Shown in pieces: positions 7,458 to 52,283 of a DNA stretch of 64,000 bases (its first letter is position 1; each line of letters begins with the position of its first letter). The DNA comes from an uncultured archaeon (GTDB lineage Archaea > Thermoplasmatota > Penumbrarchaeia > JASLWR01): contig CAYSHM010000016.1 of assembly GCA_964430885.1 (NCBI GenBank), forward strand, positions 1-64,000. Reading direction: 5' to 3'. The notes beneath the pieces are model-generated. The model ran no database searches and was not told where the DNA came from. It saw only the letters and a list, made by a program, of their open reading frames with translations. The position numbers were made by a program, and so were the translations under genes.

Positions 7458-7502
7458 CTGATCACTGAAATCAATGACGAATCAATAACGGAGATGAAAT
7501 AA

Positions 7503-10331: not shown

Positions 10332-10339
10332 GACCAATA

Positions 10340-29567: not shown

Positions 29568-32500
29568 TCATCCGTTTATCTGTCCTTGGGTACCGCAATG
29601 GTTGCAGGTCACAAGAGCTGGATATCCCTCTATCACCGCTGTGTACTGGTCTTTGCAGCTGTGGCACTGCAGGGTCAAGCTTTCAATCGGGGGCGTCTGG
29701 TCTGATGGACCAGGGGGTTGCTCAGCTGAAGCGGCCTGGGGACCTGCGATCTTCTCAAGGTCCCCGAAAATATCATCCATACTTGGGGATTCAGAGGATG
29801 TTGATCCGCTTTCAACACCTGCAGGAGCAAGGGGCGATCCTGCTGCCGGCGGAGGTTGCAGGGACCTTCCCGGTTCTCCTTCAGTACCCTTCTCTGGAAC
29901 CACTTCATCGGGGGCCGGGGGAAGAGCCATTCTATTCAGGTCCTGGTCCCCACCAGCGCTTGAAAAAGTTGGCAGCAGGTATTCAGGTTCCGGTGCTGGA
30001 GTCGAGGGGGGCGAGAGCCGAGGCAGAGCGGACTCTGGACCTGCACCCGATGGCGGCGGAGGGAGCTGTTTTGGCGGGGGCGAGGATGGAGGGGCATTCA
30101 CATTCGAAGACGGGAGATTATTTTGCTGTGAGGGGGTGTTGGCGGGGTAAATTCCTGCCGGACTGCCGTAACCCGGTCGGGTACTAGGAGAAGCATGGGG
30201 CTGCTGAGCAGGCCCTCCTCTGTAAACAGGGGCAGGATAATAAGGATACCGGAGCGGAGGCGGCGCCTGACCGGGCTGTGACGGGGGACCTCCAGACGGA
30301 GTGTTCTTCGGGGTTTCCTCATCCTTTTTCCTCCTGCGTATCAGGATAAATACGATAATCAGAATCAGGAGTAACAGAAGTATCAGCAGCAATATCCACC
30401 ACCAGCTCCAGCCGTTCCCGCCCACGTTAATAACGTTGTCTAATCCGCCGTCATCGTCACCCGAAGTAGGCTTAGACTTCTTTCCCCCCTCGACATCCAC
30501 CTTTATATCGTCGCTTACGTTGTTTCCGTCAATATCGGTCACATAGAGAGTGATGGTATGATTGCCTGGATCCAGCATCGATGTAAAGGACATATTGGAA
30601 CTGAGAAATCCACTGATATTGGAACGCCACGAATAGTTCAGGGCATCCCCGTCCAGATCGGTGGAAGCTGAAGCATCGAAAGCAACCTCCTGGTCATGCT
30701 TGAACTGCACCCTTTTTCCGGCAGGCAGGGTGATTACTGCTTCCGGGACCGAAGTTACATTGATCCTGTAAGGGTCGGAGATCACGGATCCCGTACCTGC
30801 CACATCACCTGCCGAGAAGCGTATATAATTGCTCCGTCCCCACTCATATTCCTCGGCAACATAGATCTTCAGGGGATCTCCCATGATGATATCCAAAGGG
30901 TTCGGGATCTGCCATTCACCAAAGGACCCGTTCTCAGACCCCTCGGTGGATATGGAATATTTCAATCTGCCAGGGTCAACACCAGAGTACCTATCAGATA
31001 TCTCAATGGAAACCTGGACCTCTGGGGGATCATCCATGTTCTCTATTGAAAAATCTCCGAAAACAACAGGTGACTGGTCTATCCGGACATTCATTTCCTC
31101 GCTCAGTAAAGGGCCGTTCCCTGCAAGATCGGTTACCCTCCACCTGACATAATTCAAAGGTCCTTCCGAAAGGGTCACCAAAGCTTCAGCACTGACCTTT
31201 GAGGGATTATCTGCAATACCGGTATCCAAAATCTCTATCTCCACTCCCTCAGCCGTCCAATCCGAAAAGTGAGAAGTTCCACTAAGCTTGTAGGAATATG
31301 AAATACGGTCCAGGGCCAGACCGAATCCGCCTTTATCCTCGAAAACCGCACTTACCTTAACCCCTGAATTCCTGAACCATGGGCCCTCTGCTGGAAGTAG
31401 GGAGGAAATTAAAGGAGGTTTTGAATCAATATTGAACTGGAAATGGCTGGTGTTGCCCCATTGGTTGTATACATCGCAGGCCGTGATATGGAAATAATAT
31501 GTGCCTTCCTTCAGACCGGAGAACTCCCTGGGTGAAGTAAAATTGATCTCTGCACTGGCAGGGTTGGTGATGTCCTTGTAAGGTTCAGATAGGGGACTCT
31601 TGTCCACATGATAGGAATACCCTTTGATGCCGGTTACCTCCCCGGGATGCTCCCAATTGAAAATGGGATCAGTGCTGTTGTAATACATTTCAGGGTCGGG
31701 ATGAGTGGGCGAAGATATGCTGATGAAGCCTGGACCCAGATAATCAAGGTAAATTGTATCATTGAATATTTCAGATACTATTCCGGCGTTGTCCCTGAAC
31801 CTGACACCAATTGTCTTGAGACCGTCTTCCGGTGATAAAGAAATACCCTTTTCTTCCTTATAGGGCTCCCACTGCTGAGCTATGCCCTGATCGTTCATCA
31901 CCTGCATCTCGTCCACACCAGAAGCGTTGTCCTCGGCGTATATCCTCAGTGTCACAAGCTGGCTGTTGGTGCTCTCGGGGTCGAACTGACCTCCCTCTAT
32001 TGTTATGTTCCCAACGGGTTTGGCAGTATCGATCTTGAAGCTCTTCAGTGAGGAATAATTGGACATTGCGTGGTATGCATCCTTTGTCTTCACCCTCCAG
32101 TAGTACTGCCCGTCGTCAAGATCAACAGGAACCTTGTGCTCAGGCAGTGTAGAGTTGACCCAAGAGGAATTGTATATCTGGTCATGCATTCCTGTATCGT
32201 TGTATATCTCCAGTATGAAATCAGACTGGTGATCCCCTGCATCAGGATCTGTGAAGTTCCATTTCAGTGTGGGTGTCGAATCCCCGTGCCAGACTGAAGA
32301 TTGAGGAAAATAGGGTTCAGGGTCGCTTATAAGGTCGTACTCGATAATTATTCTCTCAATGAACGGGGTAACACTGTCATCGGAAGTTGTCATGGTAGCA
32401 TTCCACATAAGACGGGAACCCCTATCTGTAAAAAGAAAATCCGTGTTGTTCTCCATGGTGATCCAGTTCTCACCGTCCACGGTAAGATTGTAGATTATGT

Positions 32501-33626
32501 CAGTTCCAGCAGGTTTGTTCTCATACCATATGATCTTGGCGGCCCCTATGGCAGGCCAATCCATATACATGGGAAGGGACTGTATGGTGCCGTTGGTGAA
32601 ACCCATCTGGTTGCCCCATGTGTAGGCAACATTATCCATTGCATAGGTGTCCTGCCATCCCCTGCTTGTGAACAGTCTGTTATGGAAATAATCGTAACTT
32701 GCATCCACCACGTAGTTACTGCTGATGAAAACCTCATTGGTATAAGCATGGACCGTCCCGCTGTCAGCATCCACTCGGTGGGTGATGTGAGCCTGACTGT
32801 AATCAACGCAGTAAAAGTAATGGCCAACAGCAAAACATGTGCCGTACCCTCCCTTATTGGGAAGACCGCTCACAGTTCGTATCAGGTTCTCGTTCATATC
32901 CCATATCTTTAGAGTTGTATCACACCAGGTATATATGTATGTACCGTCACAGGCCACTCCCTGCTGCTGAGGACCTCTCCAACCCCAGTTTGTAGTACGG
33001 GCGTGATTGATATTGCTGTTCACTGCCTGCTTATCCGCCAGACGTACCTTACGAAGGTTGTTGCTGGACTCTGAAGAGGTATAAAGATGACCATTGGCCA
33101 CGAACATCTGGGTTGAATGCTGTGATTCAGGTACATTCATGTTATCAATGTTGGGCTGACCATTAAAATAATCGTTCCAGCTGGCGAATATCTCCACTGT
33201 GGTACCGCCTCCCCCATTGAGATGATAGTAACGTCCGTTCTCGTCCACAGCCATGGAATTGAAACCGCCGTGACCCACAAAATGGTCGTGATTGGTGACC
33301 TGGCGGATATTGCTCTTGGGGGTGCCGCTTCCCATGAGGGTCACCTTTCCGTTGAAGGTATCTACTATGACCGAAGTGTTGCTCATGGATACATTGTCAA
33401 GCGAAACGAACTCCTCTACCAGACGGTTGATGTAGCGGGTATCTTCACTCTCATGATCACCGGAGGGGGATGATATGTTAATGACATCTGCATATGAATT
33501 TTCCGTATCAGGGTGAATATGAAAGGGCTGATGAGGAAAAAGGAAAAATAATGCTAACAGCAAACAAACCAATGCTGGGGAGAATCTGTTCTTGCGGGGT
33601 GGTATATTGATCATATCGCTCATCAA
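29568..33626 (-). CDS. Array surface receptor 1: olfactomedin-like head, Ig/FN3-like stalk, PKD, TM, Pro-rich tail, C-terminal zinc ribbon
   Basis: 1352-aa ORF with N-terminal hydrophobic segment, WWWILLLILLLLLILIIVFILIRRRKK and CHSC...CNHCG; paralogous to the four upstream genes. Confidence 0.85.
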   Translation of the reverse strand: MMSDMINIPPRKNRFSPALVCLLLALFFLFPHQPFHIHPDTENSYADVINISSPSGDHESEDTRYINRLVEEFVSLDNVSMSNTSVIVDTFNGKVTLMGSGTPKSNIRQVTNHDHFVGHGGFNSMAVDENGRYYHLNGGGGTTVEIFASWNDYFNGQPNIDNMNVPESQHSTQMFVANGHLYTSSESSNNLRKVRLADKQAVNSNINHARTTNWGWRGPQQQGVACDGTYIYTWCDTTLKIWDMNENLIRTVSGLPNKGGYGTCFAVGHYFYCVDYSQAHITHRVDADSGTVHAYTNEVFISSNYVVDASYDYFHNRLFTSRGWQDTYAMDNVAYTWGNQMGFTNGTIQSLPMYMDWPAIGAAKIIWYENKPAGTDIIYNLTVDGENWITMENNTDFLFTDRGSRLMWNATMTTSDDSVTPFIERIIIEYDLISDPEPYFPQSSVWHGDSTPTLKWNFTDPDAGDHQSDFILEIYNDTGMHDQIYNSSWVNSTLPEHKVPVDLDDGQYYWRVKTKDAYHAMSNYSSLKSFKIDTAKPVGNITIEGGQFDPESTNSQLVTLRIYAEDNASGVDEMQVMNDQGIAQQWEPYKEEKGISLSPEDGLKTIGVRFRDNAGIVSEIFNDTIYLDYLGPGFISISSPTHPDPEMYYNSTDPIFNWEHPGEVTGIKGYSYHVDKSPLSEPYKDITNPASAEINFTSPREFSGLKEGTYYFHITACDVYNQWGNTSHFQFNIDSKPPLISSLLPAEGPWFRNSGVKVSAVFEDKGGFGLALDRISYSYKLSGTSHFSDWTAEGVEIEILDTGIADNPSKVSAEALVTLSEGPLNYVRWRVTDLAGNGPLLSEEMNVRIDQSPVVFGDFSIENMDDPPEVQVSIEISDRYSGVDPGRLKYSISTEGSENGSFGEWQIPNPLDIIMGDPLKIYVAEEYEWGRSNYIRFSAGDVAGTGSVISDPYRINVTSVPEAVITLPAGKRVQFKHDQEVAFDASASTDLDGDALNYSWRSNISGFLSSNMSFTSMLDPGNHTITLYVTDIDGNNVSDDIKVDVEGGKKSKPTSGDDDGGLDNVINVGGNGWSWWWILLLILLLLLILIIVFILIRRRKKDEETPKNTPSGGPPSQPGQAPPPLRYPYYPAPVYRGGPAQQPHASPSTRPGYGSPAGIYPANTPSQQNNLPSSNVNAPPSSPPPKQLPPPPSGAGPESALPRLSPPSTPAPEPEYLLPTFSSAGGDQDLNRMALPPAPDEVVPEKGTEGEPGRSLQPPPAAGSPLAPAGVESGSTSSESPSMDDIFGDLEKIAGPQAASAEQPPGPSDQTPPIESLTLQCHSCKDQYTAVIEGYPALVTCNHCGTQGQING

Positions 33627-33819
33627 CCTGGGTTTTATTGGATCGACCTATCGCAATGATGGTGGGAAAGCAGGAAATCATCTAACGTAAAGTACCTGCT
33701 TGAGGGACCCATCTTTAATTGATTAATTGTTGTTATTAATATAAAACTATTATCGAATGAAATACAAGTGCACTTCTTCAAAATCCCCCATGAATTCAGA
33801 GATTTTCACAGTAGAAGGG

Positions 33820-36800
33820 TCATGCATTTATCTGGCCCTGGGTCCCACAGTGGGCACAGGTAACCAGAGCGGGGCCGCTCTCAATTTGAGCAGTGTACTG
33901 GCCTCCGCAGTTATGGCACTGAAGGGTCAACTGGGTTACTTGAACATCTTCTTCAGGCAATTGGACTTCCGTCTCTTCTGATGGCATATCCTTTTCAGGG
34001 ATCTCATCAGGAGCTGGAGGCAGGGCCTTGAGGCTCAGGTCCTGTACGGGACCTGCTGAAGTTGATTGGGGAAGAACATAGCTGGGAGGCGGTGATGCCG
34101 GAGGGGGCGGTAATAGCCTCTTAGGCCTATCCTGAACAGATGAGGCAGGTCCTGCAGATGGTACACCAGGTCCCGACGTTTCCGGAGGTGCAGGTGCATT
34201 ATAATCAGGACCCTGAGAAGCTGGAGCGGGCGGTCCCGGTTGGGCTCCGTAACCTGGAGCTTGATAATATGAACTCTGTGCTTGTGTATTGTATGTAGGA
34301 TAGCCCTGCTGGGGATAGGGATACGAGGGTTGGCCTGAAGGGGGGGGCTGACCATAGGAGCTTTGAGGATATTCTGCCGAGGGCACATCTGCCTTTGTCG
34401 GCGCAGTATCGTCTGCTCCTTCCTCCTTCTTCCTTCTCCTGACCACCAGCAGAACTACCAACAATATCACCAGCAAAAGACAGACCACAATAACTATCAG
34501 CCACCACCAGCTGCTGCCGGAAGAAGCCGATGAGGAATCCAGTGAGGAATCATCGTCATCCGAACTCCCTCCTCCTGAACTCCCTTTGCCAGTGACGGTG
34601 ATGTAGGCCTTCTTGCTCTCGTTCAGCTCATGACCGTCATCCACATAGAGATAGACCACATAATCACCGGGAAGGTCCAGAGTTGTGTTCATGGTAATGT
34701 TCCAACCCTGGAACGCAACAGTTTTCTGAGTGCGGTTCTTTATAAGCCAATAGAACGATAGAACATCTCCCTCGGGATCGCTGGACCCCGACCCATCGAG
34801 AAGCAGCAGGGTGCCGCCTTTCACCTCCTGGTCATCCCTGGGGCTGGTCATCACCGGTAAGGGGGCAGAGTTAACCCATACCCTGTGTGCTTCAGATTCC
34901 ACCAGCGGATTTCCCACCACATCTTTTGCCCTCCATTTGATATAGTTTTCCTTTCCCGGGTCAAAATCAATATCGAGACTTACCAGAATGGAATTCTGTT
35001 TCATGCGGTTCCCCAGTGGCATCCAATCCTTGAAATTCTCCGAACCGTTGCCTTTATCCGAAACCGAATACTCTATAGACTCCCCTAGGACCCCGCTGGC
35101 ATTATCCGCGACAGTGATGCCGCATGAAACCGTCATGTCATTGGTATACTCGTGGAATTCTGGAAAATGCTCCGTGAAATATACCGGGGATGCATCGATG
35201 GACACTGAACGTTCTTCTGTTATTACGGGACCGTTGCCAGATAGATCCGTAACTCTCCAGCGGAAAGCGTTGTTTACACCCTCCTGAAATTCTATTGCAG
35301 TGACTGCCTTAACCTTCACGGGGTTGCCTGCAATACCGGTATCCAATACTTCCATCTCTATATCTGCACCGCTCCAATCAGTCCATTCACTGCTCCCGTT
35401 GACCCTGAAGGAATACTCCAATGTTCCCAGGTCCAAACCGTAACCCTCAACATCCTTGAATATTACCGAGGTATCAACATTTGCTGTCTTGAGCCATACT
35501 TCCTCTTCCGGCATCATCTCATCGACAATAGGCGGGGTAGCGTCAATATTGAATTGATAATGACTAGTGTTGCTCCACTGGTCGTAAACGTCGCAGGCAG
35601 TTATATGGAAGTAATAGGTACCATCCTGAAGTCCCGGGAACTCCCCGGGAAAAGTTGTATTCTGGGCAGCACTCTCAGGCCCGCTGATATCCCTGTAAGG
35701 TTCCGTGGAGGGGGACCCATCCACAAGATATGCATATCCTTTGATACCTGTAACCTCGAATGGGGGCTCCCAGGTAAATATGGGATCCGTGCTGCTGTAG
35801 TACATCTCCGAGTCAGGATGCGACGGGGATGAGATATTTACATCCCCCGGACCAAGATAGTCCAAGTAGATGGAGTCCTGGAATACATCGGACAGAATAC
35901 CCGCATGGTCCCTAAAACGTATTCCCAGTGTCTTTAGGCCATCAAATGTTGACAGGGCCACCCGTTTCTCGGTCTTATAAGGTTCCCACTGCTGGGTCTC
36001 CCCCGAATCGTCTATGATCTGCATCTGGTGCACCCCTGAACCGTTGTCCAAGGCAAATATGGCAAGGTTTACAAGCTGATCGTTCACGCTGAATAAATCC
36101 CCCTCAATAGTAATATTGCCTATCGGTTTGGATACATCTATCTTCATTCTCTTGAGCCCGGAATAATTGGATTCCACATGGAACATATCCTTTGTTTTTA
36201 CGCGCCAGTAATAGGTGCCGTCATCTAGATCCTCGGTTATCCTGTGCTGACCGAAAGTGGAGTTCTGCCAGCTGGAGTTGTATACCTGGTCCTGAAGCAG
36301 AGTATCATTGAATATCTCTATGAGATAGTCAGACTGATGATCTCCTGCATCCGGGTCTGTGAAGTTCCACTGCAGAAGAGGTGTGGAATTGCCCTGCCAT
36401 TCCGATGTCGGGGGGAGATGGGGCACAGGATCGCTGAAAAGATCGTACTCAATAACCACTTTTTCAATGTAGGGTGAAACCTCCGGGTCGGTGGTCGTGA
36501 GGGAGGCATTCCATATCAGTTTGGAACCCCTGTGCTGAAAGATATGGTTGGTATTGTTCTCCATGGTGACCCAGTTCTCACCGTCCACGGTCATGTTGTA
36601 CACGATATCCGTTCCGGCCGGTTTCTTTTCATACCATGTTATCTTCGCTGCGCCTATGGTGGGCTGCTCCATGAAAAGGGCTTTTGACTGAATAAAACCC
36701 AGGCTGTCATGATCCCCGGTACCGCCGAAAGTATAGCAGAAATTATCTATGGTCCAGGTCTTATCAGGGTTCCCTGAATTACCATTGGTCATTATCAGAC

Positions 36801-37740
36801 TGTTTCCAAAATAATCATAATTGAAGCAGGTAAGATATGTGAAGCCCTGCATTACAACATCATTATAGTTCTCGATGTTTCCCGTATCCCCGTCCACTCG
36901 TCTTACAACGTTCCCTACTGAGTAATCAACAGGATAGAAATAGTGGCCTGCAGAAAAACAGGTACTGAGACTGTTCTGGGCTTCCGGAAGGTTGACCTGA
37001 CGCACCAGGTTCTCCTGCATATCATATATCCTCAATAGGTTTCCGCTGTAGGTGTAAATATAAGTACCGTCCGTGGTCAGTCCACACTGAGACCCACCTC
37101 CCCAAGCCCAGGATGTGGCACCCTGGCCGCTGAGCGAGCACTGTACTTTCGTATTGTCCGCCAACCGGTACTTGTCCACAGTATTCGAATTGGAAAAATA
37201 GAGATGCCCGTTCACATATATCATCTGACCGTAATTGGAAGGATTGAAGGGCAGGTTGAAGGAACCTATCTGGTTACCGTTGTTCATGAAGGAGTTCAGG
37301 GAGGAATATATATTGATCTGGTTGGAACTATACTGGTTCCTGATATAGAATTTTCCGTCCTGGGCCACGCACCTTCCGGTGAATCTGTTGTAGTTCCGGG
37401 TTCGATCAGGAGTGGAGAGGTCCCTGATCTCCGATCGGGGATTTTCGCCGCCGCCCGAGAGATAGGTACGTCCAGTATATGTGTTGATCAAAGCAGTAGT
37501 ATTGGAATAATCAATATTGGTGTAATTATTGAACTCCTCCGCAAAGCGGTTGGCGTACCTCGTGGAAGCATAGGTACTGATATCGGTCTTCGAGCTGAAT
37601 CCCTGGATCCGTGAAAACTTCGGGACGGTGTCTTTTATTGAGAAAAAACATACGGTTACCATCAAAGCTGAAATAATTAAGGTTAATAAAACCCTGGCAG
37701 CTCCATCATTCACCAAAATTCGGTTTCTATCTTCGGTCAT
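33820..37740 (-). CDS. Array surface receptor 2: olfactomedin-like head, stalk, PKD, TM, Pro/Gln/Tyr-rich tail, zinc ribbon
   Basis: Start reassigned to ATG 37740 (GGAG RBS); head homologous to receptor 1; CHNC...CAHCG. Confidence 0.85.
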   Translation of the reverse strand: MTEDRNRILVNDGAARVLLTLIISALMVTVCFFSIKDTVPKFSRIQGFSSKTDISTYASTRYANRFAEEFNNYTNIDYSNTTALINTYTGRTYLSGGGENPRSEIRDLSTPDRTRNYNRFTGRCVAQDGKFYIRNQYSSNQINIYSSLNSFMNNGNQIGSFNLPFNPSNYGQMIYVNGHLYFSNSNTVDKYRLADNTKVQCSLSGQGATSWAWGGGSQCGLTTDGTYIYTYSGNLLRIYDMQENLVRQVNLPEAQNSLSTCFSAGHYFYPVDYSVGNVVRRVDGDTGNIENYNDVVMQGFTYLTCFNYDYFGNSLIMTNGNSGNPDKTWTIDNFCYTFGGTGDHDSLGFIQSKALFMEQPTIGAAKITWYEKKPAGTDIVYNMTVDGENWVTMENNTNHIFQHRGSKLIWNASLTTTDPEVSPYIEKVVIEYDLFSDPVPHLPPTSEWQGNSTPLLQWNFTDPDAGDHQSDYLIEIFNDTLLQDQVYNSSWQNSTFGQHRITEDLDDGTYYWRVKTKDMFHVESNYSGLKRMKIDVSKPIGNITIEGDLFSVNDQLVNLAIFALDNGSGVHQMQIIDDSGETQQWEPYKTEKRVALSTFDGLKTLGIRFRDHAGILSDVFQDSIYLDYLGPGDVNISSPSHPDSEMYYSSTDPIFTWEPPFEVTGIKGYAYLVDGSPSTEPYRDISGPESAAQNTTFPGEFPGLQDGTYYFHITACDVYDQWSNTSHYQFNIDATPPIVDEMMPEEEVWLKTANVDTSVIFKDVEGYGLDLGTLEYSFRVNGSSEWTDWSGADIEMEVLDTGIAGNPVKVKAVTAIEFQEGVNNAFRWRVTDLSGNGPVITEERSVSIDASPVYFTEHFPEFHEYTNDMTVSCGITVADNASGVLGESIEYSVSDKGNGSENFKDWMPLGNRMKQNSILVSLDIDFDPGKENYIKWRAKDVVGNPLVESEAHRVWVNSAPLPVMTSPRDDQEVKGGTLLLLDGSGSSDPEGDVLSFYWLIKNRTQKTVAFQGWNITMNTTLDLPGDYVVYLYVDDGHELNESKKAYITVTGKGSSGGGSSDDDDSSLDSSSASSGSSWWWLIVIVVCLLLVILLVVLLVVRRRKKEEGADDTAPTKADVPSAEYPQSSYGQPPPSGQPSYPYPQQGYPTYNTQAQSSYYQAPGYGAQPGPPAPASQGPDYNAPAPPETSGPGVPSAGPASSVQDRPKRLLPPPPASPPPSYVLPQSTSAGPVQDLSLKALPPAPDEIPEKDMPSEETEVQLPEEDVQVTQLTLQCHNCGGQYTAQIESGPALVTCAHCGTQGQINA

Positions 37741-37924
37741 GGAATTCAGCTCCTGCAGGAAACAGCATATACACGGCAGAACTGCCAAAGATACCTGATT
37801 GAGATATATCATTGACAGAAAACAAATCCTGCCTTAGAACCTTACAATATTCTCCCTTGCAATAAAGGATTTTCGGAGGAAATCTCCACTATTTATCCTG
37901 GTCCGCTAATCAGGCAATAGGACC

Positions 37925-41911: not shown

Positions 41912-42071
41912 ATCCTTTTCCTCCAAGGATGTTCCGTATCATTCTGGATGGATGCAGAGAATTCAAGTGCGGATGCGGTTCAAGATCTCGATCATATCTA
42001 TATTTACACTTCGCGCATAATTATTCCCATGGACCACCGTTTAGCCGACTAAGTATAAGCTCTCAATATAT

Positions 42072-42095
42072 TATTTTATTTGCCTAAATAAAATA
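42072..42095. promoter_or_regulatory. Perfect 10-bp inverted repeat (TATTTTATTT-GCCT-AAATAAAATA) upstream of receptor 3
   Basis: Read directly; intergenic and next to AT-rich TATA-like sequence; function unknown. Confidence 0.35.
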
Positions 42096-42152
42096 CTTCA
42101 AGCATAATAGAGACAGGCTCATACCTGTTACAGCTCCGCAGTCCATAAGAGA

Positions 42153-42860
42153 TTACAGGGATCCTATCATTCCCTGGGCTCCGCAAAAGGGGCACTGGAC
42201 AACTGAAGGAAAGGATTCGATGATCGCTCGGTACTCCCGGCTGCAGGAATGACACTGGAGGGTTTTAGGTTCATCCTCTTTAGGCTCCGGTGGTTCTTCG
42301 TTCATGGGAACTGAAGGTGAAGGTTTGGGAGACGAGGGGGGCGGCGGAGAGTCTGACATGGTATCTATAAGACCTGAAAATACCGTATCCAGCGAAGGAG
42401 AGGATTTTTCCTTTTCCTCTTCTTTCTTTTCTTCCTCGGGGGCCCCTTCTTGTGCTTCTTCCATCCCCGGCGGGGGAGGCGGGGAAGCCTTCTTGAGCTC
42501 TTTTGTATGTTCATGGAGACCGCCGTCAACCTCATCCGGAGCTGGCGGCAGGGCCATCCTGTTCAGATCCTGTTCGCCCTCGGCAGTTGAGAACGAAGGA
42601 AGCTGATACTGGGGTGGGGCTTCCTTGGGCGGCGGAAGCTGTTGTGTTTCGGAAGGCGGAGCCGGAGGCTGAATACCGTGTCGCTTGGATGCCGGAGAAG
42701 GCCGAGGACCTGCATGCTGGGGCAGGGCGGGATACTGGGGCGCAGGCCCGGGCAGGCCCGGTCTTTGGGATTGGTTCATGTTGTACCTATGAGGATATAC
42801 GCTCTGCTGCTGGGCGGGGCCGCCCTGATACTGCGGGGGACTCTGCGGCTGATGGGGGTA
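42153..42860. repeat. Near-identical copy 1 of the tail-coding segment shared with receptor 5
   Basis: Long nearly identical DNA runs with 46361-47050, e.g. CTCATCCGGAGCTGGCGGCAGGGCCATCCTGTTCAGATCCTGTTCGCCCTCGGCAGTTGAGAACGA. Confidence 0.85.
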
Positions 42861-45800
42861 AGGGTATTGAGGGCGCCGTATTGGGGGCTGAGGCGCCTGT
42901 TTAGGTTCGGCAGCATCCTCTCCCTCCCCTTTCTTCTTTCTCCGTCTAACTACAAGCAGCATTATCAGAAGCAGAAGAAGCAGTATTATCACGGCAATTA
43001 TGATCCACCACCACCATGAACTACCTCCACCGCTACCTATAACTCCAGTCCCAGTCCCGGTGGCATCGTCGTCATCGTCATCCTTCCCAAAAGAAGATAA
43101 CCGCTTGATGTCCACAAGTACATCGTCCGATGCCGTGTTGTTATCGGGGTCAGCAATGGTGAGGGTTATTGTGTGATTACCGGGGGTAAGCTGCAGTATC
43201 ACTGTTGAATTACTCCCTATTACCCCCGAGATATTAGAGCTCCAAGCATATGTAAGGTTGTCGCCGTCCAGATCGAAAGACCCTGAACCGTCGAACTCCA
43301 CCACCTGGTCCTCCCGGAACTCGGTACGGCGGTCCTCGGGCCGGGTTATCTTTGCAGTGGGGGCCGATGTTACGTTTATCCTGTAACCAGGTGTAATCAC
43401 GTCATCCCAGCCCACAGCATCATTTGCCATGAACCTGACGTAGTTATCACGGCCCCATTCCAGAGGAAGGTTGCAGTATATGACAAAGGGATTTCCGGTT
43501 ATGATGTTCATTGGTTCGGGAGAGATCCAGTCACTGTATCTTCCCTCTAGGTCTCCTTCAGAGGTGAAGGAATAGTAAATGCTCTCAATATCAACTCCCG
43601 AATCCTGGTCTGACACCCGTATGGAGCACTCAACCTCCGGAAGATCGTCCATATCCTCTATGATGAACTCCCCGAACTCCACTGGCGACACGTCCACCCT
43701 GAGATTGAAGGTCTTGGAATGGACAACCGGGTTACCTGCAATATCCGTACCCCTGAACTGTATGTAGTTCTCCACCCCGGGTTCGAACTTGAAGGTCGCC
43801 GTAACCTGGACTCTACCCTCCTCCACCGTGGTGAGATTGCCGGAGGGTATATCCATCCAAGGAGAGAACTTATCGTCGCCCTCAGTTGACATCCGAACCT
43901 GAAAACTATCCATATCTATCCCGCTCTCACCTCTGTCCCATACCTCGATTGTTGTGGGAATCTCCCTGTAGAGATACCATATCCTTCTGGTGAGCAGTTC
44001 ATCCGAGAACTCCGCAGGAGACGTATCCACCTTCAGACGCCAAGGTTCCGATTCCGAATAATCGTTGCCAGCCACATCCATGGCCTTCCATTTGATATAG
44101 TTATCATCACCCTCCTCAAGCTTGCACTTTGCCTCCACGGTCATCACAATACTGTCCTCCGGGACCCAGACAGGGACCCAAGAACCGAATTGGTGGGGAC
44201 CTGACGTTGATATGGAATAGAATACACTGGAACCGTCAACACCTATCCCTCCGAAATCCTGAATATCCACACTGCAGTCGATGGCGCTCTCATTGAGCCA
44301 GGTCTCATCCGAGGGCGTGAAGTTGCTGAAGAAAACCCCTGTCAGATCCACCTGTATCCCCGCTGAGAAAGCGTATCCAATATTACCCACCTTATCCTCG
44401 CACCAGACAAAGATTGAGTTGTAACCCTCACTCAGACCTCTGATCTCTCCCTCCGTTAGATCGGTAAAGGAGCCATTGGGAGTGAAGGAATTATCGCGGT
44501 TGGAATAATAGTAGCCTTTGAGACCCGAGGCATTGTCCTGAACCTCCTGCCAGGTTATATTAATACTTCTGTGTTTTGTAAAGGGAGACTGCTTCCCGTA
44601 AGCATAAGTCTTTATCTCCCCGGGAGGAAGGGGCGCCTCGGAGTCTATCTTGAGGGGGGTAGTGATGTTGGTTGTGCTGTAGCCGTCAGCAGGGATACTG
44701 ACTATTGTGACATAGAGCTCCTCGTAAGGATCCATTACATCCCTGGCCATCATGCTTATGAACATATTCTCCCCTCTGCTTTGGTTATCCCACCAGATGT
44801 TGCCGCCTGCATCGGCCACCTTCACGTCGAAATATTTCTCTGCAGGATACAGCAGCTGTGCATCCTGGTAATGAACTGTGAGACCCGTCAGGTTCAGCAT
44901 CTCTGCTCCCCTGACCCAGTCTCCTTGCTCCAGCTCTCCCTGGTATTCCCCGGTGATCTTCAGCTCACCCTTGAAGTCCAGGTCGTTCTCCACACGACAG
45001 AGCCACGGAAACCTGTTTTGAAATGACTCCCCGTCATTTGCAGTTACATTGGCAAAGCAGTCCACCCAGCCTTCGTGGGGGAAGGAAAAATTATAATTCA
45101 CTGTGAAATTCAGCCACCACTTGTCCGCTCCGTTATTCGTGATATCACACATATTCGTGATGAGCTCCATGTATGAGTTCTCATCCTGGAGTTTGAAGAA
45201 TTCGTCCCTGGTCCAGTTGTAGCAGAGGGTCGCGTTGGTGGTATTGTAGTCCAAGTGCACCTTCAGCTCTGCAATATCATTCAGCTGGCGGGGGGAGGTG
45301 ACGTTCACCGATAAGGTGTAGGGCCTGTATCGGGCATAGCATGTTCCGTTGTCCGTATCCCCTGCCCTTACAGATTCAACGCTGGGCACAGGTCTCAGAC
45401 CCTCCATGGCCTGCTGTATCTCCGACTGGGAAAGCTCTCTGCCGAAAACCGCCACCTCGTCTATTATCCGTGTATTCTGGCACTGGCCGTCCACGTTATC
45501 ACCGCCTATACACATCAGCGGACCATTACGATTGTCATTTCCTCCAGTCCTTGGAGTGGTTGGAACATTCTCAGTACCCTGGGAATTCTGGTTGCCATCG
45601 ACATACATCCTGAGAGTGTTCTGATTGCAGGTAATGGCTATATGATGCCATTGGTTGTCTACAATGTTTATATTGGTGTTGGTGTTGTAATTGCTGTTGT
45701 CATTGTCGCTTCCACCCCAAAACCTTATACTGCTGCCGCTGGTCTGAATGGAATAACCGTTACGAGGATTGCAGCAGCCACCGAGCATCACCAGACCGCC

Positions 45801-46238: not shown

Positions 46239-46360
46239 ATGCACACCCCACAAGATGAAAGCCATATAGTGCTGGGAATGCATAATAATATTTTCCGCTT
46301 AAACTACGAAAAATCCAACGGGGGTGAGCAGTATTACAGGAAGTAGTTCCTAGGCTAACA

Positions 46361-47050
46361 TTAAAGTGATTCTATCATGCCCTGGGCTCCGCAGTAGGGA
46401 CACTGGACAACGGAAGGGAATGATTCGATGATGGCCTGGTATTCCCTGCTGCATGAATGGCACTGGAGGGTTTTGGGTTCATCCACTTTGGGCTCAGGAG
46501 GTTCTTCTTCCCGGGGAACTGTTGGTGAAGGTTCGGGAGATGAGGGCGGGGGTGGAAAGTCTGACGCGGCTTCGGTAAGACCTGAAAAGACCGAATCCAG
46601 TGAAGGGGAGGATTTTTCCTTTTCCTCTTCTTTCTCTTCTTCCTCGGGGGACCCTTCTTGTGCTTCTTCCATCCCCGGCGGGGGAAGTGGGGAAGCCTTC
46701 TTGAGCTCTTTAGTATGTTCATGGGGACCGCTGTCAACCTCATCCGGAGCTGGCGGCAGGGCCATCCTGTTCAGATCCTGTTCGCCCTCGGCAGTTGAGA
46801 ACGAGGGAAGCTGATACTGGGGTGGGGCTTCCTTGGGCGGCGGAAGCTGTTGTGATTCGGAAGGCGGAGCTGGAGGCGGAATACCGTGTCGCTTGGATGT
46901 CGGAGAAGGCTGGGGACCTGCATGCTGGGGAAGGGCGGGATACTGGGGTGCAAGCCCGGGCAGGCCCGGTCTTTGGGGTTGATTCATGTTGTACCTGGGC
47001 GGATATACGCTCTGCTGCGGGGCAGGGCCGCCCTGATACTGCGGGGGCCT
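46361..47050. repeat. Near-identical copy 2 of the tail-coding segment shared with receptor 4
   Basis: See 42153-42860. Confidence 0.85.
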
Positions 47051-50000
47051 CTGCTGCTGTTGATAGGGATAAGGATAGGCCGGTTTCCTTTGCTGCGGGG
47101 AAGGGGTACTAACTGGTTTTTCATCCTCTTCCGACTTCTTCTTTCTTCTCCGGAGTATCAGGAATATCAGGAGCAGTATCAGGAGAAAAACCACAGCGGC
47201 TATCACTATCCACCACCACATACAGCCTTCACCGGAGCTTATACCGCCTGTTTCGGTTTCTGTGGTATCGTCATCCTCCTTCTTGGCAGCGGTCTTGGAC
47301 TTAATATCCACAAGGATATCCTTTTGGGCAGTGTTGTTGTCAGCATCTGTTACGGTCAATGTGATTGTATGGTTCCCTGGTTCCAGATAGATGAACAAAG
47401 TAGAATTATTTCCCAGAAAACCTGAGATATTGGATGACCATACAAAGGTAAGGTCATCCCCGTCGAGATCGGAGGAGCCCGAACCGTCCAGCTCAACTAT
47501 CTGGTCATCACGGAACTCGGTTCGACGGTTCTCGGGTCTGGAGATCCTGGCTACCGGTTCCGAGGTGACGTTCATTCTGTAACTGGGAGATATTACCTCC
47601 TCCCATCCAACCACATCATCGGCCTTGAACCTAACATAGTTCTGCCTGCCCCATTCCAAAGTAAGGGTGCAGTATACCATGAACGGATTGCCAGTTATGA
47701 TGTTCATGGGGGATGGAGCCTGCCATTCACCGTATTTTTCCTCTATGTCGCCTTCGGTTGACACGGAATAGAAAATACTGTCCACGTCCACACCCGAATC
47801 CCTATCCGAGAGGCGAATGGAGCATTCCACCTCGGGAAGCTCGTCGGTATCCTCTATGATGAAATCGCCGAACTCCACGCCGGCAGTATCGATCCTGAGA
47901 TTGAAACGTTTGGAATAGACCATGGGATTGCCTGCGGTATCTGTGCATCTGAACTGAATGAAATTTTCCGACCCGGGAAGATACCTGAAGGAGGCGGTCA
48001 CCTGCCACCTGCCTTTCTCACCGGCGGTGATGTTGTCAGGGGATACAGCCATCCAGGGACCTAGATCATTCTCTCCGGTGACAGAATAACGCACCTCTAC
48101 ACTGTTCTGATCGACCCCGCTGTCCCCTGTATCCCATACCTCTATTGTGGAAGGGATCTCCCGGTAGAGATACCAGCTTCTGATGGATGTCAGTGTTTCG
48201 CTGAACTCAACAGGGGAAGTATCTATGAGTATACGTCGGGGTTCCGATTCCACAAAATCGTTCTCCGCGAGGTCCATTGCCTTCCACTTGATGTAGTTGT
48301 CATCCCCTTCGTCGAACTTGCATTTGGACTCCACCCTGAGGAGAATGCCGTCCTCCGGGACCCAGACCGGCACCCATGAACTGAACTGGCGGGGGCCTGC
48401 CGTGGAGATGCTGTAGAATATACTTGAGCCGTCAACGCCTGTTCCTCCATGATCGCTTATCTCAACGGAACAGTCCAGTGTGCTCTGGTTCTGCCAGATG
48501 CTGTCCGAGGGGGTGAAGTTGCTGAAGGATACCCCTGTGAGGTCAACCTGTATAGGAACAGAAAAGGCGGGACCTATGTTTCCTACCATGTCCTCGCACC
48601 AGACGAATATATTGTTGAACCCTTCGTTCAAACCTCTTATCTCACCCTCTGTAAGGTCGGTGAATGTCCCGTTGGAAGTGAAGGAGTTGTCATGATCTGA
48701 ATAATAGTACCCCTTGAGACCTGAGGCATTGTCCGCTGAATCCTTCCAGGTGATATTGATGGTGGGATATTTTGTGAAAGGTGAGGTCTTACCGTAGGCA
48801 TAGGTCTTGATCTCATCCGGCGGAAGGGGGGCCTGGGCATCGATCTTCAGGGGGAAGGTCAGATTGCTGGTGCATATCCCGCTGTCCATTATGTTCTCTA
48901 CCGTTATCAGGATCTCCTCGTCAGGGTCAATAACGTTCCTTGTGGTTATGTTGATGAAAATGCTCTCCCCTGAGCTCTGATTATCCCACCACTTGTTCCC
49001 TGCACGATCCATTACTCGAACATCGAAAAAATCATCTTCCGGAATGAGGTTAGGCGCCCCCTGATAATGAACCGTCAGATCCTCAACGGTGATGGATTCA
49101 TTTCCTCTGACCCAGTCTCCTGCTTCAAGTTCACCCTGGTATCGGGCGGTGAGTTTGGGCGTGCCAGAGAACTCAAGATCGTTCTCCACCCTGAACAGCC
49201 ATGGGAACCTCACCAGATTGAACCGGCCAGTGCCCGAAGTAGTGTTCACGAAACAGTCCACCATCCCCTCGTGGGGAAAGGTGAAATTGATATGGAAGGT
49301 AAAGTTCAGCCACCAGTTCTCAACAAAATCCGTGGTAATATTGCAGTGGTCCGTTATGAGCTGAACATGACCGTCATGGTCCTGAAGCTTGAAGAAAGTA
49401 TCATTGGTCCAGTTGTAGCAGAAGGTGGCATTGGTTGTGTTGTAATCCAGATAAAGCCTTATCTCAGACGCGTCGTTGAGGTTCTTGGAGGAAGTGACAT
49501 TGACCAGCATGGTATACTCCCTGCTCCGGGCATAACAGATATTCTCTGGATCGCCCCTTGACAGGGCTACATTGTCGGTGTAGGCGTTGAGATCTATCTC
49601 CAGCCAACTTGCCACAGGCAGACCTCCCGGGCTCTGGCCTATGGTTAGAAGCGTCTCCGAACCTGTAGGTATGGTAGTAATCCTTGCATGTGATGCCGAT
49701 GAACCCGTGAAGAAGGGACGATTCATTTGGTGCACCATTGGGTGGCCTACTGCCGCAACATAATTGGCGCCGTCGTTTCCGTTCTGGGTCCTAACTCCGA
49801 AGGGACCTGGGACCCCTCTGGACCATCTTCTCTGATAGTTGGTCCCGACCATGTCGATGAGTATCCCGCCGTGAGCAACATAATCCTCCATTACCGAAAC
49901 CATTGACTCCATCTTGTTCAGGTACTGGTCCGGCTGGTATTCGGATATAATTATCAATCTGTACTGGGCCACATCGAAATGAGAATCCTGAACATTATTG

Positions 50001-50401
50001 GCGCTGATCTGAGTAAAGGGTATACCCCGGTTGTTCATCTCGCTCCTCCAGCCATCAGACCAACCGCTGTGATCCCAGATCAAAAGGATCGGGCCGTTGT
50101 CAGCGTGGGTGGGCCAAAGCCAATCGAAAGTGTTGATGATGAAGAAGCGGGAATGCTGTCCGTTCCCGTAACCGTAGCTCGCTATTGTCCCGGTGACAAA
50201 ATAGATGCCCTTCCCAGGACTACGGGTCTCGTAGGGTGATTGGGCCGTGGTGGGTCTGGAAAGCTTGACACTGTCCACAGTTGAATCGGGTGTGGTGCTT
50301 TCCGAGTAATAAAAGGATATTAACCCCAAAGGGACACTGAACAGCATTACAAGAGCGGTCATTACAATAATGAACTTCAAACTGCATGGGTTTTTCGGCA
50401 T
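46361..50401 (-). CDS. Array surface receptor 5: class-I GATase/flavodoxin-like alpha/beta head, type-B stalk, PKD, TM, Pro-rich tail, zinc ribbon
   Basis: Head ILLIWD...FDVAQYRLIIIS...MEDYVAHGGILI...HPMV; stalk collinear with receptor 4; CHSC...CPYCG. Confidence 0.85.
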   Translation of the reverse strand: MPKNPCSLKFIIVMTALVMLFSVPLGLISFYYSESTTPDSTVDSVKLSRPTTAQSPYETRSPGKGIYFVTGTIASYGYGNGQHSRFFIINTFDWLWPTHADNGPILLIWDHSGWSDGWRSEMNNRGIPFTQISANNVQDSHFDVAQYRLIIISEYQPDQYLNKMESMVSVMEDYVAHGGILIDMVGTNYQRRWSRGVPGPFGVRTQNGNDGANYVAAVGHPMVHQMNRPFFTGSSASHARITTIPTGSETLLTIGQSPGGLPVASWLEIDLNAYTDNVALSRGDPENICYARSREYTMLVNVTSSKNLNDASEIRLYLDYNTTNATFCYNWTNDTFFKLQDHDGHVQLITDHCNITTDFVENWWLNFTFHINFTFPHEGMVDCFVNTTSGTGRFNLVRFPWLFRVENDLEFSGTPKLTARYQGELEAGDWVRGNESITVEDLTVHYQGAPNLIPEDDFFDVRVMDRAGNKWWDNQSSGESIFINITTRNVIDPDEEILITVENIMDSGICTSNLTFPLKIDAQAPLPPDEIKTYAYGKTSPFTKYPTINITWKDSADNASGLKGYYYSDHDNSFTSNGTFTDLTEGEIRGLNEGFNNIFVWCEDMVGNIGPAFSVPIQVDLTGVSFSNFTPSDSIWQNQSTLDCSVEISDHGGTGVDGSSIFYSISTAGPRQFSSWVPVWVPEDGILLRVESKCKFDEGDDNYIKWKAMDLAENDFVESEPRRILIDTSPVEFSETLTSIRSWYLYREIPSTIEVWDTGDSGVDQNSVEVRYSVTGENDLGPWMAVSPDNITAGEKGRWQVTASFRYLPGSENFIQFRCTDTAGNPMVYSKRFNLRIDTAGVEFGDFIIEDTDELPEVECSIRLSDRDSGVDVDSIFYSVSTEGDIEEKYGEWQAPSPMNIITGNPFMVYCTLTLEWGRQNYVRFKADDVVGWEEVISPSYRMNVTSEPVARISRPENRRTEFRDDQIVELDGSGSSDLDGDDLTFVWSSNISGFLGNNSTLFIYLEPGNHTITLTVTDADNNTAQKDILVDIKSKTAAKKEDDDTTETETGGISSGEGCMWWWIVIAAVVFLLILLLIFLILRRRKKKSEEDEKPVSTPSPQQRKPAYPYPYQQQQRPPQYQGGPAPQQSVYPPRYNMNQPQRPGLPGLAPQYPALPQHAGPQPSPTSKRHGIPPPAPPSESQQLPPPKEAPPQYQLPSFSTAEGEQDLNRMALPPAPDEVDSGPHEHTKELKKASPLPPPGMEEAQEGSPEEEEKEEEKEKSSPSLDSVFSGLTEAASDFPPPPSSPEPSPTVPREEEPPEPKVDEPKTLQCHSCSREYQAIIESFPSVVQCPYCGAQGMIESL

Positions 50402-52044: not shown

Positions 52045-52283
52045 TATTATGTTGAAGTTATATTGGAGCTTACGGGCGTTCAATTATTAGACATCATACC
52101 CATAAGATAAGTAAATAATTACTACTGATATTAATAGGCTAATACTTGTTGGCCACATATACTGATATAAATAATACCTTAATTTTTTATAATATTGCTG
52201 CTTAATTGAAATGATTCTGCCCATGTTACGAATGGATGGGATATTATTAATGAATAAATTGAATTAAAGAGGAGTAACTAGAT

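Follow-up and report, generated by a model that had tools for sequence, protein, structure and literature searches.

A candidate family of archaeal surface receptors or adhesins with different heads on a common stalk and tail in a Thermoplasmatota genome

Modular multigene families of adhesins and receptors shaped by gene conversion are known, for instance, among variable-tip bacterial adhesins and animal receptor arrays. Olfactomedin (OLF), LamG, NIDO, and endostatin-like domain families are interaction modules, and OLF (PF02191) is found in metazoan receptors and matrix proteins such as latrophilin/ADGRL, noelin, myocilin, and gliomedin. On the cytoplasmic side of the membrane, ZitP of Caulobacter is a bitopic protein with a membrane-tethered zinc finger, and the partners of GltJ/ZitP-type proteins are MglA/AglZ or PopZ. 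GltJ, a component of the Agl-Glt focal-adhesion machinery in Myxococcus xanthus, is likewise described as bitopic, with an N-terminal cytoplasmic zinc ribbon plus a GYF domain (PMC11135422). The locus described here shares features with each of these systems. Topical literature searches found no published description of such an archaeal receptor family and no counterpart to its design, in line with the original prediction that no archaeal system built this way had been described.

Architecture of the array and its gene family

The window, a 64,000-nucleotide stretch of contig CAYSHM010000016.1, contains five minus-strand open reading frames (ORFs) of 1330–1376 aa: P0001 (29568..33626; 1352 aa), P0002 (33820..37812; 1330 aa), P0003 (37925..41926; 1333 aa), P0004 (42153..46283; 1376 aa), and P0005 (46361..50401; 1346 aa). 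ORF calling and alignment bore out the proposal that these are co-oriented paralogs, and Pfam searches and alignment likewise agreed with a modular design in which differing heads are carried by a common stalk, transmembrane helix (TM), and tail. From the N-terminus, all five have a hydrophobic leader, a head of about 200–300 residues, an Ig-like stalk, and PKD, then an acidic/Gly/Ser linker leading to the WWW-TM-RRRK anchor, and behind it a Pro-rich tail with a putative terminal zinc ribbon of four Cys; the Ig-like/PKD stalk covers roughly 750 residues. The K319L-like_PKD family matched P0001 (residues 970–1045; 31.2 bits) and P0002 (27.3 bits) above its cut-off of 27, and the PKD family matched P0005 at 24.0 bits (cut-off 23.5); the PKD matches of P0003 (22.4 bits) and P0004 (22.6 bits) were sub-threshold, and an Ig_Rha78A_N match (29.0 bits) lay in the P0003 stalk. 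Contigs from four public DNA runs of one study, two of which may be the source, spanned the array without rearrangement.

The five genes are true paralogs, but the array of five is not the unit that had been proposed: its members represent two stalk subfamilies and are part of a family of 15 to 24 or more copies per genome. P0001, P0002, and P0003 (subfamily A) are mutually 41–46% identical, whereas P0004 and P0005 (subfamily B) share only 28–30% identity with P0001, and an alignment spanning both subfamilies is limited to roughly the last 530 residues. The source genome (G000) holds at least 17 family ORFs, 13 complete and four cut by contig ends, with a total of 19,733 aa corresponding to about 1.9% of 3.13 Mb. 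Together with three further genomes of the same Thermoplasmatota family (G001, G002, and G003), 75 family ORFs were obtained after dropping two duplicate fragments, and these sort into 21 head sequence groups. These copy numbers are lower bounds, as the ORFs were drawn solely from regions that the search listed and some source-genome members are cut by contig ends.

A hydropathy peak of 3.7–4.0 marks a single C-terminal helix (W-W-W), which is followed by RRRK(K). In the window genes, N-x-S/T sequons number 15–25 per ectodomain and 0–1 per tail. Given this distribution and the basic cluster after the helix, a type-I single-pass topology (N-out, C-in) is supported, and the tail, with a positive-inside flank and the sequons on the N-terminal side, is predicted to be cytoplasmic, as first suggested. 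If the leader were uncleaved, the protein would be anchored in the membrane at both ends. The anchor and tail occupy, all on the minus strand, 29571..30413 in P0001 (TM 30339–30395, motif 29913–29981, zinc ribbon 29571–29675), 33823..34515 in P0002 (TM 34441–34497, motif 34012–34080, zinc ribbon 33823–33927), 37928..38809 in P0003 (TM 38735–38791, motif 38243–38311, zinc ribbon 37928–38032), 42156..43022 in P0004 (TM 42948–43004, motif 42540–42608, zinc ribbon 42156–42269), and 46364..47227 in P0005 (TM 47153–47209, motif 46748–46816, zinc ribbon 46364–46477).

The tails contain 19–22% Pro and terminate in LQCHxC...CxxCGxxGxI. Their most invariant element is a 24-residue linear motif, Y.LP.F.T..G.QDLN..ALPPAP, present in 14 of the 16 source-genome family ORFs with an intact C-terminus; searched against every ORF of this genome that is 100 aa or longer (5084 ORFs), the pattern matched 14, each of them a family member. 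A second short tail motif reads S-L/M-D-D/S-I/V-F-G.L. The spacing CxxC-x17-CxxC is found in all five window genes, with Pfam zinc-ribbon matches that are all below cut-off (best 18.9 bits vs. 30.8). The putative zinc ribbon that was expected to be a shared module is common to the five window genes, but it occurs in only nine of the 16 source-genome members with an intact C-terminus. Among the 71 such ORFs of the four genomes, 55 had the motif, 50 the ribbon, 42 both, and eight neither; with 21 of 71 lacking the ribbon and eight of 71 lacking ribbon and motif, the ribbon appears dispensable for family membership. Across the source genome, 48 ORFs end in a CxxC...CxxC pattern, including giant proteins of 1454–3282 aa.

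Identity of the heads

The head boundaries proposed earlier agree with the breakdown of homology between the paralogs, with heads ending at residues 340, 366, 305, 300, and 275 in P0001 to P0005, respectively, and four of the five heads could be assigned an identity. They do not share one common fold: a predicted OLF beta-propeller, a LamG concanavalin-like domain, and a GATase1-like alpha/beta domain are represented. Of the four unrelated folds in the original prediction, at least these three are structurally unrelated, and the fourth (P0003) is unrelated in sequence.

The P0001 head (32600..33325, minus strand) is a divergent OLF domain, with a PF02191 match at residues 127–320 (24.2 bits vs. 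a cut-off of 23.9; model positions 25–233 of 246) and, in a genome-level search, 27.9 bits at 32646–33248. The P0002 head (36700..37450, minus strand) is of a paralogous type, 34–35% identical to that of P0001 (BLAST E 1e-59 to 3e-61), with no OLF match in Pfam by itself; its orthologs in G001, G002, and G003 are 61–69% identical. P0001 passes the Pfam cut-off for olfactomedin weakly, P0002 is its clear homolog, and both heads are very divergent OLF members (24–28 bits). Elsewhere in the family, strong OLF heads of G001, G002, and G003 reached 134–146 bits on PF02191 and E of about 1e-30 against noelin, myocilin, and latrophilin-3 chains. In hhalign, a profile of the P0001/P0002-type heads aligned with a profile of these strong OLF heads at 94.8% probability (E 5e-8, 193 columns). 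Searched against PDB sequences, the former profile matched a designed propeller only (E 2e-4), and no OLF chain. OLF was present in four of 301 sampled Thermoplasmatota genomes, all four from this one family.

The LamG head of P0004 (45390..46055, minus strand) was borne out as a concanavalin-like Laminin_G_3 domain (PF13385; residues 131–290; 77.9 bits vs. a cut-off of 27.6), and a paralog (L004:4450-8655) matched the same family at 55.5 bits. The C-type lectin proposed for P0003 (41000..41610, minus strand), on the other hand, found no Lectin_C/CTLD match in Pfam or PDB even at E ≤ 10: none of seven head sequences matched Lectin_C or another CTLD family at this threshold, and sequence and profile searches of PDB returned no CTLD chain. 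A W..Y.F / TW.EAE / RWVG.KD pattern in these heads, which we take to be CTLD-like, serves as a lead only. The AlphaFold (AF2) model of the P0003 head was unusable (pLDDT 35.4), and this head has no family or structure match; the Cys-containing module of about 200 aa recurs, at 47–58% identity, as the C-terminal domain of bacterial (Myxococcota) Cys-rich repeat proteins.

For the P0005 head (49590..50220, minus strand), the AF2 model obtained with a 47-row alignment (pLDDT 84.7, pTM 0.85) indicates a flavodoxin-like alpha/beta domain of the class-I glutamine-amidotransferase (GATase1) or ThuA-like type. All 13 Foldseek matches at E ≤ 1e-3 were GATase1-type proteins, although with TM of only 0.34–0.54; the best (E 2e-4 to 1e-3) were SpuA, GMP-synthase GATase subunits, and peptidase E. 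Among the alignment columns that are invariant or nearly so (W, V, G, G, P, G, G, H), there is a near-invariant His but no Cys nucleophile, so that the complete catalytic Cys-His-Glu triad is missing. Relatives of this head (155 out of 1.84 billion representatives at E ≤ 1e-3) belong to proteins of very different lengths, are found alongside dockerin, beta-helix, and MAM-like domains in secreted multidomain proteins, and gave sub-threshold ThuA matches in three of ten scanned. This head may be no binding module at all.

Other heads in the family include NIDO, lamin-tail, endostatin-like, and strong olfactomedin domains. Both OLF-type and propeller-type heads are found on both stalk subfamilies, and in stalk relatives elsewhere in the class the heads are of different kinds (FG-GAP, Kelch-like, NIDO-like) and the tails are short. 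Judged from their distribution in sequence, the heads are mobile modules, some of them probably acquired horizontally.

Conflicting histories of heads and stalks

We compared source-genome members with members of the same head group in the other genomes. In the nearest of 42 pairs, heads were 61–74% identical, stalks 41–50%, and tails 20–35%. Head orthologs at this identity across three genera point to an old and conserved repertoire, and the heads appear to be under purifying selection. Stalks showed a different pattern: all six complete subfamily-A stalks of the source genome form one clade (SH-aLRT 99) despite four head groups, and all seven complete subfamily-B stalks form another (SH-aLRT 100) despite six head groups. 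Head-wise orthology of the stalks was rejected by AU tests, with stalks and tails clustering by genome. Forcing the stalks of P0003-type heads into one clade cost 410 log-likelihood units (p-AU 8e-7), and forcing those of P0001-type heads cost 152 (p-AU 8e-108). The trees were quick IQ-TREE runs (LG+G4) with SH-aLRT support only, and the constraints were picked after the tree was seen, with head groups defined beforehand.

Sliding windows place the identity switch at the head/stalk junction. Residues 51–250 of P0005 are 10–22% identical to its neighbor P0004 and 64–80% to its G001 ortholog, whereas residues 1151–1250 are 92–94% identical to P0004 and 30–42% to the G001 ortholog. Within the P0004 and P0005 tails, a candidate gene-conversion tract (42453..42752, partner around 46652–46960) has 94–96% DNA identity vs. 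57–77% elsewhere in the 3.1-kb collinear region; exact matches reach at most 72 nt (at 42525 and 46733), and contigs are broken at the two tail sites by a 203-nt unitig of about twofold depth.

Head orthology set against clustering of stalks and tails by genome points either to concerted evolution of the chassis (stalk, TM, and tail) or to an exchange of heads. The heads are thus swappable in the evolutionary sense, as the original prediction had it, given that trees, AU tests, and sliding windows agree on conflicting head and stalk histories. Rapid turnover of heads was not supported, since the same head types are orthologous across three genera. Local head order was also partly kept (H07 then H06 in G000, G001, and G003; H00-H08-H12-H05 in G001 and G003), suggesting that rearrangement is infrequent.

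Proposed function and comparison with known systems

We lean, by a modest degree, towards type-I glycoprotein receptors or adhesins with one binding head per uniform chassis and a common cytoplasmic partner. The host would be a wall-less marine Thermoplasmatota archaeon exposing these proteins as N-out, C-in glycoproteins. Each head would sit at the tip of an Ig-like/PKD stalk and bind its own external ligand, which could be glycans, proteins, particles, or partner cells, while the tail would be a disordered Pro/Gln/Gly-rich segment with linear motifs, usually ending in a zinc ribbon. Stalk, TM, and tail may be held uniform within each lineage through paralog recombination, by gene conversion or head replacement; a uniform chassis would place all heads at equal height and wire them to the same cytoplasmic docking sites. 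The motif and zinc ribbon of every receptor would then engage one common putative partner for anchoring, clustering, or signalling. We infer ligand binding, the tail partner, and any signalling from the organization described above. The locus was found in no RNA run, which is neutral on these points.

A structural coat could also account for proteins that make up such a share of the genome: in a wall-less cell, they might substitute for a glycocalyx or S-layer, with the tail tying the coat to membrane or cytoskeleton and the heads as decoration without ligand-specific function. The high copy number, the density of N-glycosylation sequons in the ectodomains, and the many other large single-pass surface proteins of the source genome that also end in a zinc ribbon are consistent with this. 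We nevertheless consider a coat unlikely, given that the heads are the best conserved part between genera (61–74% vs. 41–50% for stalks), which is unexpected for decoration, that OLF, LamG, NIDO, and endostatin-like domains are established interaction modules, and that 21 distinct head groups kept as orthologs argue for distinct functions. Quite improbable, in our view, is substrate capture by a heterotroph, in which heads, some of them enzymes, would act at the cell surface by binding or processing polymers as food (glycans, peptides) and the tail would only sort or anchor. Laminin_G_3 does lie within the concanavalin-like lectin/glucanase superfamily, and the amidotransferase/ThuA-like head of P0005 has relatives in secreted multidomain proteins; however, this head lacks a conserved Cys nucleophile, a scan of 31 head sequences found neither glycoside-hydrolase nor peptidase families, and OLF, NIDO, and endostatin-like domains are not known to be enzymatic.

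The neighborhood of the array raises regulated intramembrane proteolysis, in which ligand binding would trigger TM cleavage and free the zinc-ribbon tail as a cytoplasmic regulator. The putative protease, a single-copy, M50-like (site-2-protease-like) HExxH membrane protein (28597–29472, minus strand), is encoded immediately downstream of the array in the same orientation, and its G002 ortholog lies directly downstream of another family member. The G001 and G003 orthologs, by contrast, are on contigs without a listed family member, so adjacency holds in two of four genomes. The Peptidase_M50 match is below cut-off (21.3 bits vs. 27.2), the zinc ribbon gave no sign of nucleic-acid binding, and 21 of 71 members lack the ribbon altogether, making this mechanism very improbable.

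Returning to receptors or adhesins with a common partner, a wider version is a "cassette-and-chassis" system in which dozens of ancient heads, partly of bacterial origin or of eukaryote-matrix type (OLF, LamG, NIDO, endostatin-like), would be mounted on a stalk and tail homogenized by gene conversion and coupled through the tail motif and zinc ribbon to a single cytoplasmic machine. Such a system would parallel, in archaea, the wiring of focal adhesions or adhesion receptors and would serve wall-less cells in surface attachment, gliding, or cell-cell contact; we regard this as speculative and doubtful. The head inventory of a genome could predict attachment targets of uncultured marine Thermoplasmatota, as a "contact repertoire", and the invariant tail motif offers a concrete handle, as peptide bait, toward the putative partner of the zinc-ribbon tails.

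Like metazoan olfactomedin proteins, the archaeal family has a true OLF domain, and, as in latrophilin, this domain lies distally on an ectodomain that is anchored in the membrane. The archaeal proteins differ in being single-pass with an Ig/PKD stalk, without the GAIN/7TM part and without a coiled coil. Domains usually regarded as animal modules (olfactomedin, NIDO, LamG, endostatin-like) appear here in a putative archaeal membrane-receptor context. The likeness to GltJ and ZitP is one of functional analogy only, a single-pass protein whose cytoplasmic zinc ribbon and linear motifs or proline-rich recognition recruit partners, as the archaeal tail would; in GltJ the ribbon is N-terminal and accompanied by GYF, whereas the archaeal ribbon is at the extreme C-terminus and the tail itself is proline-rich. 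A GYF search of the source genome gave no match, and neither did its controls. Like the adhesin and receptor families shaped by gene conversion, the archaeal family is organized in tandem arrays, combines a conserved chassis with a distal domain that varies, and shows signs of paralog recombination. In contrast to those families, the archaeal heads are conserved across genera rather than hypervariable, and the chassis is homogenized instead, an unusual form of concerted evolution in which the homogenized part is the conserved chassis and not the variable tip.

Architecture and orientation of the array proteins

The five-gene array (29568-50401, minus strand) consists of ORFs of 1330-1376 codons arranged head to tail, with intergenic gaps of 77-226 bases and no alignable common element among the five upstream regions. 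Alignment of the five paralogs (P0001-P0005) bore out the module order of the original prediction: a hydrophobic N-terminal leader precedes a head region of ~200-300 residues, unalignable between most paralogs, followed by a long, beta-rich ectodomain with weak Ig-like family matches (Ig_Rha78A_N, Big_3_3, Big_13, and Y_Y_Y; Pfam), a PKD domain reaching the Pfam cut-off in three of the five proteins, an Asp/Gly/Ser linker, a membrane helix with two to four Trp at its start and RRRK(K) after it, and a tail of 206-269 residues (19-22% proline) that ends in LQCHxC-x17-CxxCGxxGxI. P0001-P0003 share 41-46% identity with one another, P0004 and P0005 are 28-30% identical to P0001, and alignment between the two sets is limited to approximately the last 530 residues. 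Judged from these alignments, the five genes are not equivalent and fall into two stalk subfamilies, A (P0001-P0003) and B (P0004 and P0005).

Given that hydropathy (Kyte-Doolittle, 19-residue window) shows a single strong C-terminal peak in each array protein (3.7-4.0), with a basic cluster after it, and that N-x-S/T sequons number 15-25 per ectodomain versus 0-1 per tail, the predicted topology fits an N-out/C-in orientation. Residues ~60-105 of P0001-P0003 form a neck, T/S-R-Y..-..-E-D-F.N....D..NT.....T..G...L.G, that stands before every subfamily-A head, whatever the head type. In the manner of an insert, the subfamily-A head therefore sits between two conserved stretches, this neck before it and the stalk behind it.

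The most invariant element of the tail was the linear motif P.Y.LP.F.T..G.QDLN..ALPPAP rather than the zinc ribbon. Across the whole source genome, the motif pattern matched 14 ORFs, all 14 of them family members, and a second motif, S-L/M-D-D/S-I/V-F-G.L, followed the first in most members. The motif was present in 55, and the ribbon in 50, of the 71 family ORFs whose C-terminus is intact; 42 ORFs had both and eight had neither. Full-length tail matches were confined to the source genome and three others of the same taxonomic family (G001-G003) among 37 genomes of the class; in the remaining genomes, the match covered the membrane helix and proline-rich start alone. A pattern scan of public genomes with the tail alignment (A3) returned 18 pattern matches and zero confirmed relatives. 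GYF and GYF_2 searches of the source genome gave no match, with controls equally silent.

Against curated zinc-ribbon families, the terminal ribbon gave sub-cut-off matches throughout. A comparison with the curated families of NCBIfam yielded sub-threshold matches only. On its own, the ribbon also terminates other giant proteins of these genomes, and the surface proteins of the source organism seem to use it as a general tail module. We counted 48 ORFs of ≥100 aa with a terminal CxxC...CxxCG pattern in the source genome, many of them giant single-pass proteins (1454-3282 aa) with the variant K.KCPKC...RP....C..CG..G.L. Open frames of 7028-7295 aa on G002 contig 42, G003 contig 3, and G001 contig 92 likewise terminate in a family-type zinc ribbon.

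Heads of the window genes

The P0001 head passed the Pfam cut-off for OLF weakly (24.2 bits in the protein scan, 27.9 bits in the genome search), and the P0002 head is its clear homolog (E about 1e-60). A head group on subfamily-B stalks of G001-G003 scored 134-146 bits on PF02191 and matched noelin, myocilin, and latrophilin-3 chains at E about 1e-30; by these matches, it is unambiguously assigned to the olfactomedin domain. Because the profile of P0001/P0002-type heads matches these strong OLF heads (94.8% probability over 193 columns), we accept the P0001 and P0002 heads as predicted divergent OLF domains. The P0004 head matched Laminin_G_3 (77.9 bits; Pfam).

For the P0005 head, PDB sequence searches returned nothing and no family matched; ESM Atlas matches at 0.89-0.90 served as leads only. 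When 1.84 billion representatives were searched by profile, 155 relatives emerged in proteins of 118 to 5709 residues, and ThuA matches, all sub-threshold, were found in three of ten scanned relatives. The AlphaFold model, built from an alignment that included 47 of the 155 relatives, had a pLDDT of 84.7, and Foldseek placed it, with modest TM-scores, among class-I glutamine-amidotransferase-like proteins. Since no Cys is conserved in P0005-type heads (47-row alignment), this head is probably not an amidotransferase.

The P0003 head had been called a C-type lectin, an assignment that found no backing: PDB sequences (single-sequence and profile), Pfam at E≤10, and the ESM Atlas all yielded zero matches, and the AlphaFold model, from a 4-row alignment, reached a pLDDT of only 35.4. 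With hhalign, the match to endostatin-like heads was confined to the shared N-terminal neck (47 columns), with none in the head. A metagenome scan with P0003 gave just two matches, both at the level of the membrane helix, and no locus from a close strain. In Myxococcota MAGs, proteins with Cys-rich repeats carry the P0003-type module as their C-terminal domain; the 47-58% identity of these copies to the archaeal head suggests transfer between domains of life. The Myxococcota carriers (records L064-L067 and proteins P0022-P0025) have Dicty_CTDC-like repeats, and one Polyangiaceae genome holds the module twice.

Family size and the histories of heads and chassis

The source genome (3.13 Mb in 44 contigs, 91.6% complete; the window is part of contig 16) had an SSU rRNA scoring 1504 bits on the archaeal model, which also matches bacterial controls. 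The observation of five array paralogs held and widened considerably: this genome has 17 family ORFs, 13 complete and four truncated at contig ends, spread over contigs 4, 16, 21, 31, 34, and 44, and the four genomes together have at least 75 distinct ones after two duplicate fragments were dropped, copy numbers being lower bounds because ORFs were taken from listed regions. Large tandem arrays also occur in G001-G003; G003, for example, has seven array genes on contig 10 and nine or more on contig 1. One G003 array member is divided between two ORFs (443 and 949 aa; 6586-10830 of locus L018, contig 10), and an in-frame TAG lies inside a match there (71671-73857 of contig 10); the arrays therefore hold at least one broken copy.

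At a threshold of ≥120 BLAST bits and ≥60% coverage, the 65 complete heads fell into 21 groups. Other heads named by Pfam were NIDO, a lamin-tail domain, Endostatin/NC10 (70 bits), and a PQQ-like propeller, and ten of the 21 groups had no family match in the scanned representative. OLF and a second, propeller-like type were each found on both stalk subfamilies. In other families of the class, the relatives of the stalk had short charged tails and other heads (FG-GAP, Kelch-like, and NIDO-like).

Head and chassis (stalk, membrane helix, and tail) differed in their relationships. For each of the window heads, orthologs in other genera were 61-74% identical, versus 41-50% for the attached stalks and 20-35% for the tails, and sliding windows located the switch in identity at the head/stalk junction. 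Within the source genome, P0004 and P0005 have unrelated heads on stalks that are 65% and tails that are 79% identical; their tail DNA is 94-96% identical across ~300 bases versus 57-77% elsewhere, and assemblies of four runs break at this tract on a double-depth unitig. In maximum-likelihood stalk trees, the six complete subfamily-A members of the source genome formed one clade (SH-aLRT 99), as did its seven subfamily-B members (SH-aLRT 100), and stalks of G001 and G003, which belong to the same genus, paired by head type within their own clade. AU tests rejected joining the stalks of P0003-type heads (delta lnL 410) or of P0001-type heads (152), under constraints picked after the tree was seen for head groups defined earlier.

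Independent lineage-specific expansions were considered as the cause of this genome-wise clustering of stalks and ruled out, since heads from different genomes are orthologs, with 61-74% identity. This leaves concerted chassis evolution or repeated head replacement, both of which involve exchange of modules. A diversity-generating or antigenic-variation system was rejected because heads are conserved between genera. Gene order held within one genus and, in part, across genera, and the B-B-A-A-A arrangement of the window was not seen in G001-G003.

Genomic neighborhood and comparison with known systems

A search of RNA runs turned up no carrier of the array locus, which bears on expression neither way. 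Directly downstream of the array lies a single-copy gene for an M50-like membrane protease (28597-29472, minus strand); the protein has the HExxH motif and matches Peptidase_M50 at a sub-threshold score. Its ortholog in G002 is directly downstream of a family member, and those in G001 and G003 are on contigs without a listed family member. Two tandem PHO4-family phosphate transporter paralogs (50788-53537, plus strand) lie immediately upstream of the array, and a complete uvrB-uvrA-uvrC row for bacterial-type nucleotide excision repair (5439-12247, plus strand) stands in this archaeal genome. The window encodes two further large single-pass surface proteins outside the array, one with NosD/beta-helix and PKD matches (1568-5125, minus strand) and one with PKD, PEGA, and CarboxypepD_reg matches (15938-18892, minus strand); their strongly acidic cytoplasmic tails, without a zinc ribbon, set them apart as another tail class of this genome.

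Paper searches on olfactomedin in archaea and prokaryotes, on the host order, and on Thermoplasmatota surface and adhesion proteins turned up no account of the family. PMC11135422 describes GltJ as a membrane protein that builds a bacterial focal adhesion through its cytosolic zinc ribbon, its linker, which the ribbon binds, and proline-rich recognition; the likeness of the family tails to GltJ would be a functional analogy alone. The interpretation proposed for the array was upheld in part, as to modular heads on a common chassis and module exchange, and found no support for the C-type lectin. This kind of system, a modular adhesin/receptor family, is already known. As far as we searched, its combination here is new, with eukaryote-matrix-type and bacteria-shared heads, a lineage-homogenized chassis, and a zinc ribbon paired with a cytoplasmic motif specific to the family.
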